From a virus, in the UHGV virus genome UHGV-0249966: DNA of 15,833 bases, one strand, 5' to 3'. The notes below the pieces were generated by a model. That model was not told the DNA's origin. It did no database searches and saw only the letters and a list, made by a program, of their open reading frames with translations. The translations under genes were made by a program, and so were the position numbers. The stretch's first letter is position 1; each line of letters starts with the position of its first letter. Shown here one piece after another: positions 3,550 to 7,764 of the stretch.

Positions 3550-4740
3550 TTAATTGCTGTTAACCGAAGTGACCAGATTTGCCAGGTATTTATCGGTAAT
3601 ACGCTGGCGCAGGGTCAGGTTTTCGAGAGGAGGCACCGGGGTATAGTCGTAGTCGATATACAGTTTTCCGGCCTTGAGGGTTTCCGCATCGTTGGATTCT
3701 TCGCTGAACCAGCAGGTCGCATCCACGATATAGCCGTTTGTTTTCAGCTCACGGAATTTGGCATTGATGCCGTCAACGATGTCGCGAATCAGCGTTGCGG
3801 TGATGGGCTTGTCCACCGCCCACATGTGCGCCTCAGCCATCGTGTCGGCCAGCACCTGCGCGGTGCGGGTGTAGTTTTCAAAGAGGAACAGCGGGTCATC
3901 AGAGCAGGTACGGTTACCCCAGAAGCGGAAACCGTCACGGCGAATCAGCGTTGTGACGCCTGACTCGTTAAGCAGGTCAGCATCGGTGCCGGACTCCTGC
4001 AAATCCCAGAATACAGAGGCGCTGATGCCGGTAACACCGTTCACCCCAACGTTGGACAGCGTTTTATGCCAGCCCTGCTCCTGGTCGATTTTAGCGCGCA
4101 GACCCAGCGCACGGGCGGTGGCATACGCGGTGGCGGTGGTACTGGTGACCGTATCCCATGCGAGGAAATCCGGCCAGATGACCATCAGCTCACGCTGGCT
4201 GAAATTCTGACGGTAGGCTTTCACCTCGGAAATGGTTTTACAGCCCCATGCGCTGATATACCCGAAAGCGCGCAGCTTCTGACAGACGGATGCCAGTGCA
4301 ACAGCCACCTCTTTGGTATCCAGTCCCGGCACACCGAGAATACGCGGTTTAACACCGGTTACCGACTCCGCCGCCAGCAGGGCTTTTAGTCCGGTGTACT
4401 GACCGTTTTCGTCGGTGGTGCCGATGATATTGGAAACGGTCTGCGCGAGTTTCGTTTCCTCGTCGTCGCCGGTGCCGTCTTCCACACGCACGACAACGGT
4501 GACCGGTTTTGACTGGTCAGCGATGGCCTGCAACGATGCCGCCAGCGTGCCTTTTTTACCGGCCTTTGCAATTGCGCTCTGCACATTGGTAATCAGCACC
4601 GGTTTATTGAGGGGGAAGGTTTCCGCATCCGCATCGCTGGCCGTGCAGACCATGCCGACAATGGCCGTGGATACGGTGGAAATGACACGGGTGCCGTCGT
4701 TAATCTCCAGCACCTGCACGCCGTGATGATAGTCTCTCAT
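3550..4740 (-). CDS. FI: Tail sheath protein gpFI
   Basis: 396-aa ORF (MRDYHHGVQVLEINDGTRVISTVSTAIVGMVCTASDADAETFPLNKPVLITNVQSAI...), same length as P2 gpFI and recognisably the contractile sheath N-terminus. Confidence 0.95.
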   Translation of the reverse strand: MRDYHHGVQVLEINDGTRVISTVSTAIVGMVCTASDADAETFPLNKPVLITNVQSAIAKAGKKGTLAASLQAIADQSKPVTVVVRVEDGTGDDEETKLAQTVSNIIGTTDENGQYTGLKALLAAESVTGVKPRILGVPGLDTKEVAVALASVCQKLRAFGYISAWGCKTISEVKAYRQNFSQRELMVIWPDFLAWDTVTSTTATAYATARALGLRAKIDQEQGWHKTLSNVGVNGVTGISASVFWDLQESGTDADLLNESGVTTLIRRDGFRFWGNRTCSDDPLFLFENYTRTAQVLADTMAEAHMWAVDKPITATLIRDIVDGINAKFRELKTNGYIVDATCWFSEESNDAETLKAGKLYIDYDYTPVPPLENLTLRQRITDKYLANLVTSVNSN

Positions 4741-4835: not shown

Positions 4836-4859
4836 CAAAGAAAAGGCGGGTAATCCGCC
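4836..4859 (-). terminator. Candidate intrinsic terminator after the 278-aa accessory gene
   Basis: On the minus strand: GGCGG-ATTAC-CCGCC (5-bp all-GC stem, 4845-4859) followed immediately by TTTTCTTTG (4844-4836). It lies between the stop of ORF 4984-5820 and the FI start. Confidence 0.45.
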
Positions 4860-4983
4860 AGCCTGCCATGATTTGCACTCACTCATTTTCCAACTGACAA
4901 TTTACATAGCCCAAACGCTATCAAATCTGACAGTCTGCTTTGAGCGAAATGCGGACATGCGGGAGCATGGTTTATGTATGAAA

Positions 4984-5820
4984 CTAATGATGATAAATAC
5001 CATCGTCTAAAGGGGGACCTTCAGCCGTAACCCCCGTGATACTACTTGGCGGTTCAAAGATGGCCCGACCAAATATTGCATCAAACTCTGCTTTTGTGAC
5101 TGATAAGTATTGCAAGATGAGCTCTAGCAGCTCTCTGTACGTATCACAATGCCATTCAATGTGAGGACATATTCGGGAGAGAACTCTGTTCTTAAAATCA
5201 TCCAGATTATTTGGGACTTCCAGCAAGTTACCAGTGTTTAATGCTTTCGACATAAACTTGTAATTGAGCATAGAGAGAACCACTACTGATACACCTTTCT
5301 CTTGCCTTAACTGATCGAACTTCTCTTGTGCTTGAAGGCTTAGCTTGGCGTATTCGCGATCTCGTTTAGAGTTGATTGGTTCGACGTACTGAAGCGGTTC
5401 GTCTGCAGCATCACCGATACGTGGACAAAAGTATCTATTCCACCAAGCCTCAAAATACCTTTTTTGGAACTCAAGGTATGTCATCCCAATAATATTGGTG
5501 TTTTGAGTGTACTGTTTAGCACCCTGCTGAAGCCCGTGCTTTGAAATAATAAATCCAATATTAGCCCCGGTTTCATGCATTACCGTGGTGAACGAATGGA
5601 CCACCGTCTGTGGTATAGAACTACCCCAGTTTTTGCATTCCACAATGTATCTGATTTTGTCCACGCTCCTAACATCTGTAGCAAGAACATCCACATTCAC
5701 CGAGCCACGCGGGGTTTCTAAATCGACCTCGACTTCTGCAAACAAGCCAACATTACGGAATATACGTTGGACCCCTGTCTGGAGGTCTTGCCAGTTTTCT
5801 GGTAGTGGGTCATCGATCAC
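4984..5820 (-). CDS. Accessory protein with N-terminal PD-(D/E)xK (Mrr/restriction-endonuclease-like) nuclease core and an unassigned C-terminal region; candidate defence nuclease
   Basis: 278-aa ORF. Motif ...VNVDVLATDV...IRYIVECKNW... (D44, E61-x-K63) fits the D...(D/E)xK pattern of the restriction endonuclease fold. Start is GTG at 5820 (in-frame TAG at 5839-5841 prevents extension), with AGGA 9 nt upstream. GC looks intermediate, lower than the phage genes. Not part of the canonical P2 late operon. Confidence 0.6.
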   Translation of the reverse strand: MIDDPLPENWQDLQTGVQRIFRNVGLFAEVEVDLETPRGSVNVDVLATDVRSVDKIRYIVECKNWGSSIPQTVVHSFTTVMHETGANIGFIISKHGLQQGAKQYTQNTNIIGMTYLEFQKRYFEAWWNRYFCPRIGDAADEPLQYVEPINSKRDREYAKLSLQAQEKFDQLRQEKGVSVVVLSMLNYKFMSKALNTGNLLEVPNNLDDFKNRVLSRICPHIEWHCDTYRELLELILQYLSVTKAEFDAIFGRAIFEPPSSITGVTAEGPPLDDGIYHH

Positions 5821-5940
5821 TTCTGCTTTTCCTATGCACTATCCGCATGCTTTTAAGACTACTTGAAGACACAAACGTCGTCATCCACTAAAAGGTTCAA
5901 ATTTGAGATAAAAGTTCGTTTCTGGTACGAAGCGGATCGT

Positions 5941-6104
5941 TTGAAGAACCGTGTGATCTGCTAAGAGCGAGGAGTGGACGTTCTCAAGGGATTGCTTACA
6001 TCGAGGATGTATGAATCAACGGGGTGCAGGTCACAATATATGCTATCACTTGGTTGTTGAAACGAATGCCAAAGCCTGTGACGAGCGAGGAGTAGACTTT
6101 GGCA
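5941..6104. repeat. Two copies of a 15-nt motif GAGCGAGGAGT(G/A)GAC, each within an imperfect hairpin, in the inter-ORF spacer
   Basis: Copy 1 at 5965-5979 (gagcgaggagtggac) lies in the loop of hairpin 5941-5987 (5-bp stem, one bulge, 3 more bp). Copy 2 at 6083-6097 (gagcgaggagtagac) lies in hairpin 6067-6104 (perfect 8-bp stem tgccaaag/ctttggca, last motif base in the stem). Both are preceded by TGTGA; direct orientation, 118 bp apart. Confidence 0.6.
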
Positions 6105-6114
6105 CAAAAAAAAT

Positions 6115-7068
6115 TTAAGTGTCCGATGACTTTGTTTCAGCCGCTTTATCCTCAACCAATACCCAATCTCCGGAGCTAACCTTTGTCATAAGACAAAATG
6201 GAAAGTTGTTAAAAAAATGTTCAATATCACTTGAGGGTATTTTCTCAATTTTATTTAAACAACCATCAGCTATTTGTAGGGAAATCATTTCTCTTGTAAT
6301 TTTCATAAATTGATCAACATCAGATAACAACCATGTTTCATGATGAGCACCAAACAATTTGTGCGGTATATCATCAAGAATAAGATTGTCTAAATCATGT
6401 GATTTATCTTTGTTTAGCTCAAGAAGTACAAAATCAAAAAAATCAAAAAGATATGAATAGAGAAGATGAGTATAAAAGGTAAAATAGTAATCAGCAAAAT
6501 TAATATTGTTATTGAATCTATTTGAATACATCATATGAGGTTGAATCAGATCGTTTAGATCAGAGTCATATGCTTGGAAACAAATCTTTGTTTTAATATT
6601 ATCATCGTTGACATAATAAGGATTTACTGTTATCCCTCCATGAACTATCTTATTTCTTATTTTATTAAAGTCCTTATACCATTTTAAATTCAAATCTGGA
6701 AATTCCTGTGCATATTGCTGGAAATGATTTTCAAGGTAATCATATTTGTTGCCATTTTTTTTAGTTGGAAAAATTAATTTATCAGCTATCTGATATGCAA
6801 TATCCCATATCGTGCTGATTTTATAATAGCAATACTCAATAGCACTAATGCTGACAATTGATGTTGCATCATGTTTTCTGATGAACTCAGCATCTTTTTG
6901 AATTTTATTAATGTAAGTAATCATATAAAACAGTTTCTTGAAATGAGTTTTTAAATTTTTTAAAAGAAACTGAAGTTTTATGTCTTCCAGTGTATCTTCT
7001 TCATACTTATTTAAGTACATAATAATTTTATAAAGTGGACTGCCAACTCTTTTTGCATGTACATCCAT
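6115..7068 (-). CDS. AT-rich accessory protein with R-x4-H (HEPN-like) motif; candidate abortive-infection / RNase-type defence protein occupying the P2 Z/fun position
   Basis: 317-aa ORF with strongly AT-rich codon usage, unlike the flanking phage genes. ATG at 7068 preceded by GGAG (GGAGTAAATA-ATG). Motif KIRNKIVHGG = R138-N-K-I-V-H143, encoded at 6640-6657, matches the HEPN R-x4-6-H signature (R-N-x3-H as in many Abi-type HEPN proteins). Assignment rests on the motif alone. Confidence 0.55.
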   Translation of the reverse strand: MDVHAKRVGSPLYKIIMYLNKYEEDTLEDIKLQFLLKNLKTHFKKLFYMITYINKIQKDAEFIRKHDATSIVSISAIEYCYYKISTIWDIAYQIADKLIFPTKKNGNKYDYLENHFQQYAQEFPDLNLKWYKDFNKIRNKIVHGGITVNPYYVNDDNIKTKICFQAYDSDLNDLIQPHMMYSNRFNNNINFADYYFTFYTHLLYSYLFDFFDFVLLELNKDKSHDLDNLILDDIPHKLFGAHHETWLLSDVDQFMKITREMISLQIADGCLNKIEKIPSSDIEHFFNNFPFCLMTKVSSGDWVLVEDKAAETKSSDT

Positions 7069-7108
7069 TATTTACTCCAATAAATTAATGCGAACATTTT
7101 AATTGAAA

Positions 7109-7137
7109 ATTTAATGCCAAAAACTTTAGTTAGTCAA
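7109..7137 (-). promoter_or_regulatory. Candidate sigma70-type promoter for the accessory cassette
   Basis: Minus strand TTGACT (7137-7132), 17-nt spacer, TTAAAT (7114-7109), about 40 nt upstream of the ATG at 7068, in an AT-rich 168-bp intergenic region after G. Confidence 0.35.
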
Positions 7138-7236
7138 TAATTTATTCAAACGTCCGCTACTGGCACAGAACGGACTGTCAGATTAGGCTTTACTCTGTGC
7201 CATAGATATGTAAGCTCACACCAGAGCTCATACAAC

Positions 7237-7764
7237 TTATTGCGGCATTTCCGGCCATTCAGGATTTGCAGGATCCACACGACTGACCAGAACACTATAG
7301 CGTTCCCATGCCTCCAGTCGACTACGCTCCTCATCTGTTGCCATATTCAGCCTGACCGCGCGCTCCAGCGGCAAAATCACGGATTCAGCTTCGGAAAGCA
7401 AAGCTGCCTTATGTAATTCCGCCAGTTGCTGCTGTTCGTCTGCCGTATAAATCCGCTTAATCACGGCACCATCCTTAAACATCCATTTACCAGAGTCATC
7501 AGCACGCCGGTTGGCAGTAATATCAGGAACCTCAACGACGCTAAAACCTTCAGGATTAAGCGTTGAAGCATCTCTGGTGATGGCGACAATAATATTATTT
7601 TCATCGTAAACAATCTTTATTGTGTCTTCCTGAAAATTACTTACTTCTTCATACCAGTTTTTTCCGTCTTCGGACCATAACCAGATAACATCAAAATTCT
7701 TTGTTAGCTGATATTGCTCTTTTGTTTTTGGATTACCTGACTTAATGTTCTTTAAATGCTGCAT
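7237..7764 (-). CDS. G: Tail fiber assembly chaperone gpG
   Basis: 175-aa ORF directly after the tail fiber gene, same length and position as P2 gpG. Confidence 0.88.

Follow-up and report, generated by a model that had tools for sequence, protein, structure and literature searches.

A duplicated motif in the Z/fun locus of a P2-like prophage belongs to two decayed copies of a dispersed Enterobacterales repeat with a probable role at cassette junctions

The stretch of DNA analyzed here, the whole 15,833 nucleotides of the viral genome UHGV-0249966 and hereafter the window, is a P2-like prophage whose minus strand carries the tail genes, namely those for the tape measure, the tube, sheath FI, tail-fibre assembly G and fibre H. 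The interval between the tail-fibre assembly gene G (7237-7764, minus strand) and the sheath gene FI (3550-4740, minus strand) is the variable Z/fun locus of the P2-like phages, and by megablast the flanks are common to about 1000 genomes, with the 2.5 kb between G and FI found in only 8 of them. Read along the minus strand, the order is G, E1, cargo gene 1, E2, E3, cargo gene 2, E4, a terminator-like site and FI, where E1 to E4 are the four pieces of a repeat described below. It is in the 294-bp spacer between the two cargo genes that a pair of short motifs, first pointed out in a sequence-only reading of this DNA, is located.

Cargo gene 1 (6115..7068, minus strand, from the list of open reading frames) encodes a 317-aa protein with no match in Pfam, PADLOC, NCBIfam or PHROG. 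Among Gammaproteobacteria there are 70 homologues, each standing alone in an island-like context, with neighbours that include TerBCD plus PRTase/OLD-TOPRIM, RelA_SpoT and a relaxase, and we regard the protein as a candidate for a one-gene cassette with a defence or accessory role. In five of the eight E. coli genomes with the locus, the annotation splits the gene into two ORFs in a locus longer by about 15 nt, and the gene is therefore probably disrupted in those five. Three promoter-like sites (TTGACT-18-TAAATT, TTCGCA-16-AATAAT and TTGGCA-16-TATTAT) occur at 7067-7137 on the minus strand, in the interval from E1 to the first codons of cargo gene 1, which suggests that this gene carries its own promoter.

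Cargo gene 2 (4984..5820, minus strand) encodes a 278-aa protein with an N-terminal Mrr_cat restriction-endonuclease domain (Pfam PF04471, E = 4.3e-11) and a C-terminal half that is uncharacterised. This nuclease-like gene is found alone in three different mobile contexts. Besides the Z/fun hotspot of P2, these are a lambdoid prophage, in which replication gene P lies upstream of it, and an IncFIB plasmid of Buttiauxella, where it lies beside tail-fibre genes (our locus L143, 1147-1983). The solitary copy in the lambdoid prophage L001 (4053-4889) has 96% DNA identity to that of the window, and homologues at 92% identity or less have unrelated DNA upstream, for which reason a conserved 5' UTR of the Mrr-like gene was rejected. 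Cargo genes 1 and 2 are found independently of each other (in L001 and in islands) and, as independent modules, they are unlikely to work as a pair that shares an RNA. A retron, a type III toxin-antitoxin pair and any other system of two genes plus an RNA were also considered and discarded, there being no reverse transcriptase and no tandem repeats, besides the independence of the genes. Downstream of E4 and upstream of FI, an intrinsic-terminator-like site on the minus strand (4837..4859; GGCGGATTACCCGCC then TTTTCTTTGT) is kept in other P2-like hotspots and is likely the end of the cargo transcripts.

The motif itself, GAGCGAGGAGTRGAC, is present on the plus strand at 5965-5979 (copy 1) and 6083-6097 (copy 2), in direct orientation and 118 bp apart. 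The duplication is real, given that 0.04 copies (sd 0.2) were expected and none of 200 shuffles contained two or more, and no third copy appeared when up to 2 mismatches were allowed. The direct repeat around the motif reaches 25 nt with 80% identity (5958-5982 and 6076-6100) at the same spacing of 118. Several details given by the sequence-only reading stood only in part. TGTGA is indeed upstream of both copies, but at unequal distances, 8 nt from copy 1 (5952-5956) and 1 nt from copy 2 (6077-6081). Each copy had been placed inside its own inverted repeat, which is correct for copy 2, whose inverted repeat is strong (6067-6077 and 6094-6104, 11 nt, 91%) and whose minus-strand RNA forms a 12-bp stem of -15.6 kcal/mol (z = -4.76), but copy 1 has only a weak AGAAC/GTTCT pairing with a bulge (-7.7 kcal/mol, z = -0.60) that is absent from the repeat-search output. 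The A/T homopolymer next to the second hairpin is present and was found as A8 (6106-6113) followed by TTT. The statement that the spacer contains no convincing ORF was borne out, with a 64-aa ORF at 5961-6155 (minus strand) matching no family. Folding, which had been proposed as a check, did not favour a structured spacer, since the whole 294 nt folds like its shuffles on both strands (z = 0.06 and -0.81) and only the copy 2 stem stands out. A raw scan of viral contigs with the 15-mer gave mostly chance matches and was uninformative.

What the two motif copies are becomes clear from the repeat family to which they belong, an imperfect palindrome of about 150 bp that is dispersed in the accessory DNA of Enterobacterales. 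From the aligned matches, the consensus element reads IRL - hp1 - CTTCAGCTCAGTTAACTT - hp2 - GTTGCTAAC...AATCAACGGGGAGCAGGTCA (IRR), in which the tip of the left terminal inverted repeat (IRL), TGACCTGCTCCCCGTTGATT..., is of the IS3 family and ISSen4-like. On the minus strand, hp1 is GTCCGCT-CCTCGCTCAC-AGCGGAC, while hp2, GTCCGCT-YCGTGCCAGR-AGCGGAC, is an imperfect inverted copy of hp1, and the 15-nt motif consists of the 5' arm of hp1 plus the first 8 bases of its loop. The consensus core folds into a single long hairpin (-42.5 kcal/mol, z = -7.35), in which CTCCTC pairs with CAGGAG of hp2. We built an nhmmer profile of 150 positions from 112 copies, at loci chosen by a perfect hp1, a choice that inflates the apparent conservation of hp1.

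In the window, a search with this profile found four pieces, E1 to E4, all on the minus strand and none elsewhere. E3, the most complete, matches from 6033 to 5905 (E = 7e-21, profile positions 1-117, envelope to 5884) and has its closest intact relative in Buttiauxella gaviniae (L234). It begins with an IRL (5991..6033, minus strand, TGACCTGCACCCCGTTGATTCATACATCCTCGATGTAAGCAAT, identified by blastn to IS left ends) and continues with a core (5884..5990, minus strand, from the profile) made up of hp1 (5956-5979), a spacer, hp2 (5914-5937) and a decayed right end. Copy 1 of the motif lies within this hp1 and fits the whole 24-mer pattern of hp1, GTCYRCTCCTCGCTCWYAGYRGAY, as GTCCACTCCTCGCTCTTAGCAGAT, with arms GTCCACT/AGCAGAT that no longer pair. 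Inside the E3 IRL, at 5991-6019 on the minus strand, there is also an inward TTGATT-17 nt-AGCAAT, weakly promoter-like, below the promoter-scan threshold and directed toward the Mrr-like gene. E2 (6045..6106, minus strand; profile match 6083-6104, E = 0.0087) is an internally deleted copy at the 3' end of gene 1 whose intact counterpart, GTGCCAAAGTCTACTCCTCGCTCACAGTGGAT...GTAGAAGTTCGGCATTTGT, follows the homologous gene in L144, an unrelated island. Copy 2 of the motif, which keeps only the first 15 nt of the hp1 24-mer, is here the loop of the 12-bp hairpin, and the arms at 6067-6077 and 6094-6104 derive from the inner ends of the palindrome. The strong hairpin noticed earlier is what remains of the palindrome's outer stem, its loop now occupied by the motif. 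A 21-nt inverted repeat (5937-5957 and 6045-6065, 81% complementary, 87 nt apart), with one arm in the E3 spacer and the other in the E2 tail, encloses the E3 IRL and hp1. E1 (7145..7189, minus strand, E = 1.5e-7, profile positions 71-115) is an hp2 fragment (GTCCGTTCTGTGCCAGTAGCGGAC, 7152-7175) between G and the 317-aa gene and forms the G-side border of the hotspot, and E4 (4904..4981, minus strand, profile E = 1.4e-4) is an hp1-type hairpin (GTCCGCATTTCGCTCAAAGCAGAC, 4933-4956) followed by TGTCAGATTTGATAGCG, which forms the FI-side border, with the conserved P2 flank starting at 4956. The two motif copies are thus the same internal hp1 segment, the best-preserved part, of two separate, co-oriented and decayed repeat copies, both internal copies being degraded and the arms being damaged in both. 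The earlier suggestion that they might be the remnant ends of a small inserted element came near the truth as far as remnants of small elements are concerned, but copies 1 and 2 do not represent opposite ends of a single element.

The family is large. The strict hp1 24-mer pattern GTCYRCTCCTCGCTCWYAGYRGAY, for which by our own estimate fewer than one match is expected by chance, was found in 29 viral contigs and 94 genome stretches of about 90 Enterobacterales species, in genera that include Erwinia, Pantoea, Klebsiella, Citrobacter, Kluyvera, Buttiauxella, Rahnella and Serratia. The 89-nt core is present at 3781 places in 2361 of 5426 complete E. coli genomes (44%) and in 625 plasmids, and among the core matches listed almost all have no annotated feature beneath them. 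Its copy number is low, with a median of 1 and a maximum of 5 places per E. coli genome having any, and in accessory DNA only. Complete copies of 145-150 bp do exist, with both tips present in L152 and L177, and most copies are missing one or both tips. Copies of hp1 recur 100-500 nt from umuD/umuC-like genes (L151, L174, L267, L173 and L207), and in one viral contig (L175) the 3'-end fragment of a tmRNA (...GGTTCAACTCCCGCCAGCTCCACCA) is found about 140 nt from a copy, which places this copy beside the attachment site of an island or prophage. Neither the window nor an intact copy matched Rfam, with nothing near threshold, and our literature search found no paper describing the element or printing its sequences.

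The outer pieces of the window connect this family with repeats already annotated in P2-like phages. E1 and E4 overlap the "left/right inverted repeat" annotations around Z/fun (AJ512683, AJ512685), their sequences are present in every P2-like hotspot examined, and they are the same as the Z/fun ("TO") inverted repeats of P2-like coliphages (Nilsson, Karlsson & Haggard-Ljungquist 2004). Relative to these Z/fun repeats, the two motif copies are extra internal members situated between two cargo genes, and the family extends also to lambdoid prophages, plasmids, islands and about 90 species, with IS-like tips and arrays. A later paper says that the inverted repeats flanking the fun gene enable site-specific recombination (PMC8987985, citing Nilsson 2004), and another describes the route of cargo exchange in P2-like hotspots as open (PMC9122126); we found little follow-up of the Z/fun repeats since 2004 in the literature.

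We compared the borders of nine P2-like hotspots, the window and eight with other cargo (Shedu, SIR2, HNH, FlxA-like, P2 itself and others). On the G side, the flank stays the same up to ...AATCTGACA-GTCCGCTCTGTGCCA, and the 3' arm of hp2 then varies with the cargo, while the FI-side flank is constant from TCGCTCAAAGCAGAC-TGTCAGATT, with the 5' arm of hp1 being variable. Between the window and L144, a block of 1083 bp at 92% identity runs from 7164, in the hp2 loop of E1, to 6083, the end of motif copy 2, and two borders in this comparison coincide with small deletions. The Mrr block in common with the lambdoid prophage L001 extends from the IRL tip, where the homology ends exactly (6033), to about 50 nt past the Mrr stop codon and includes the hp1-type hairpin of E4, and the E3 core accompanies the Mrr gene both in L001 and, more decayed, in the plasmid locus L143. 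Beyond these cargo genes, cassette borders fall at hairpins in the comparisons of L193 with L223 and of L155 with L165. Two Dryocola arrays have 718 bp in common at 99.6%, a block that starts in the hp2 loop and stops where hp1 ends, and two related phages differ by a swap of cargo, the exchanged segment beginning after hp2 and stopping before hp1. Each repeat copy travels with its own cargo gene, and the homology ends at or inside the hairpins.

The copies also form arrays. At least two are present in 79 of 119 loci that were chosen only by a perfect hp1, and adjacent copies are on the same strand in 127 cases versus 3 on opposite strands, with the strand of half-copies of such an imperfect palindrome resting on few asymmetric positions. 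The gaps between copies have a median of about 1 kb, of which the longest ORF fills a median of 67%, and the typical pattern is hp2-IRR / gene / IRL-hp1. The cargo genes are diverse and lie in either orientation to the repeat (56 same, 50 opposite), and clustering of the ORFs within 3 kb of 121 copies gave no recurring protein family, whether recombinase, transposase, regulator or any other.

We consider it probable that the motif pair, as a segment of two decayed repeat copies, marks cassette junctions at which these repeats act as recombination handles, the handle role being the part that we infer. The repeats most likely function as DNA, serving as portable handles for single-gene cassettes. 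Each repeat copy would have arrived at the locus with its own cargo gene, and exchange between copies would proceed either by a Campbell-type insertion or excision of a gene plus one repeat or, alternatively, by a double crossover at hp2 and hp1, moving single-gene cassettes between phage and island hotspots and leaving repeat-gene-repeat arrays. The exchange could be driven by short-homology recombination, general or phage, at the best-conserved 24-mers, or else by a site-specific recombinase; breakpoints at hairpins could also arise simply because the hairpins are the best-conserved segments. Any present-day effect of the pieces at this locus, be it of the E2 hairpin or of the promoter-like site in the IRL, would be a side effect.

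The best-surviving of the rival explanations, which we nevertheless hold to be unlikely, is that these repeats are inert relics of a selfish MITE, a non-autonomous ISSen4-like derivative mobilized by a transposase in trans and having no part in moving genes, whose arrays would be due to transposases favouring insertion next to existing ends, as in the targeted insertion of IS911 next to ends of its own type. The terminal repeats do match IS ends. In the window, 5991-6033 of the minus strand (TGACCTGCACCCCGTTGATT...AGCAAT) resembles the left end of the IS3-family ISSen4, with the match sitting just upstream of ISSen4 orfA; by blastn the E3 IRL is 83-87% identical to many E. coli IS left ends, and it also matches 1745 plasmids. 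The right tip of E3 is decayed; in the family, the right end of the element matches the ISSen4 right end. In a Pantoea plasmid, the same tip is followed directly by GTCCGCTCCTCGCTCATAGCGGAC, the motif in a perfect 7-bp hairpin, without a transposase. Moreover, the ISSen4 hairpin GTCTTCAT...ATGAGGAC is 43 nt from the tip, the same distance as hp1, and includes a Shine-Dalgarno-like GAGGA just upstream of the orfA start, and this leader hairpin may mask the ribosome-binding site. A related IS left end reads GCTCCTCCTGAC, with GGAGG upstream of an apparent degenerate orfA. No parent IS with the exact hp1 in its leader was found, the connection consisting of the positional analogy with ISSen4 and an intermediate-looking left end (L141). 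The anti-Shine-Dalgarno character that had been remarked in the motif has here a plausible historical basis; in the repeat itself CTCCTC has its partner in hp2.

The complete copies with both tips are also in line with a MITE, as is the one locus (L225, Enterobacter sp. Bisph1) in which a complete IS3-family element, with orfA and orfB 42-50% identical to those of ISSen4, stops about 150 nt short of a co-oriented hp1-hp2-IRR copy, an arrangement that may represent insertion next to a like end. Features that recall MITEs, ERIC/IRU-type palindromic repeats and IS3-family elements such as ISSen4 are a size of about 150 bp, an imperfect palindrome, terminal inverted repeats TG...CA that match an IS family, an intergenic location and the lack of coding capacity; its sequence is presumably not ERIC, going by the ERIC primers. 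In contrast to these elements, its copy number is low and confined to accessory DNA, and adjacent copies are co-oriented and one gene apart. Neither of the two complete copies (L152 and L177) is flanked by a target-site duplication, which gives no hint of recent transposition, and E3 shows none either. Against inert relics we also weigh the absence of one or both tips from most copies, the ending of common gene blocks at hairpins and not only at tips, and the pattern hp2-IRR / gene / IRL-hp1, which puts genes between the copies.

An improbable alternative places the function in RNA, with the repeat as a cis element, namely a 3'-end stabilizer, a weak terminator or a processing site, or with CUCCUC masking a ribosome-binding site. 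The E2 hairpin begins 10 nt past the stop codon of gene 1, has the outlying z-score given above and is followed by UUCGUUUC, the consensus core is the very stable hairpin already described, and ERIC-type repeats have been reported to modulate mRNA stability. As a possible intrinsic terminator E2 is ambiguous: it has the 12-bp stem, its loop spans 16 nt, UUCGUUUC is all that follows in place of the typical U-tract, and the terminator scan calls none. Copy 1 at present folds no better than its shuffles. Covariation, also suggested earlier as a check, is absent from both stems across the family: the variable pair of hp1 is CG in 62 copies, CA in 32, TG in 11 and TA in 7 (Fisher p = 0.79), and hp2 pairs at 82.3% versus 80.9% in arm shuffles, the observed value being reached by 98 of 2000 shuffles. 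In addition, the orientation to flanking genes is random and Rfam gives no match, and the structured regulatory RNA, antitoxin-like RNA or processing sites proposed by the sequence-only reading find no support. The E2 hairpin may still stabilize or weakly terminate the mRNA of gene 1, as a side effect.

We give even less weight to the repeats being protein-binding operators, in which a dimeric regulator or a nucleoid protein would bind GTCCGCT-N10-AGCGGAC to control or silence the cargo. What is conserved in the arms is their sequence and not their pairing, as with protein half-sites, and each element has two sites with identical arms; yet no regulator is encoded in the locus or recurs near the copies, the sites are 3' of genes as often as 5', and the arms are damaged in both copies of the window. 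An operator pair specific to this locus, as once suggested, is unlikely because the palindrome accompanies hundreds of unrelated genes across about 90 species, and because the locus has no regulator gene. Finally, a small RNA or type III antitoxin-like RNA in the spacer, controlling one of the two proteins, would agree with repeats upstream of a nuclease-like gene and with an anti-SD-like loop, but it is scarcely credible when each gene is found without the other, the repeats are not in tandem, the region is missing from Mrr homologues at 92% identity or below, and there is neither an Rfam match nor a promoter/terminator pair.

Returning to recombination handles at cassette junctions, two known systems invite comparison. 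Like integron attC arrays, these arrays consist mostly of single-gene units with palindromic repeats in constant orientation, and their cargo is diverse and often defence-like. Unlike integrons, there is no integrase beside the arrays, the hotspot of the window holds only two cargo genes, neither of them a recombinase, and the genes lie in either orientation. The attC core pair RYYYAAC...GTTRRRY is absent, the element having GTTAGCA on its 5' side and TGCTAAC on its 3' side, that is, in the reverse order, and the GTTAGCA of the consensus does not fit GTTRRRY; furthermore, what is conserved is sequence rather than structure, with arms that vary independently, also unlike attC. The arrays resemble as well the translocatable units and pseudo-compound transposon arrays of the IS26 type, in which direct repeats alternate with single genes, as would be expected if a circle of one gene plus one repeat integrates at another copy of the repeat. 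Unlike IS26, the repeat has 150 bp and encodes no transposase. Tentatively, and with considerable doubt, we put forward the bolder possibility that hp1 and hp2 are the sites of an integron-like cassette exchange in Enterobacterales, in which a putative recombinase would cut the hairpin loops and single accessory or defence genes bounded by hp2 and hp1 would be swapped among P2-like and lambdoid phages, plasmids and islands.

In summary, for the narrow question raised by the motif pair the outcome is deflationary, since the pair is a junction scar and not a riboregulator. The analysis brings out the presence of the same repeat between cargo genes, the existence of a large unannotated family, and the co-oriented arrays with blocks that end at hairpins. 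The repeat is also a practical marker to delimit cassettes and to find candidates for single-gene defence, the 317-aa protein being one. Anti-phage genes are among the contents of the variable loci of P2-like phages, and the repeats are testable candidate sites for the shuffling of accessory genes; if the integron-like exchange were true, it would supply a mechanism for the turnover of cargo in phage defence hotspots.
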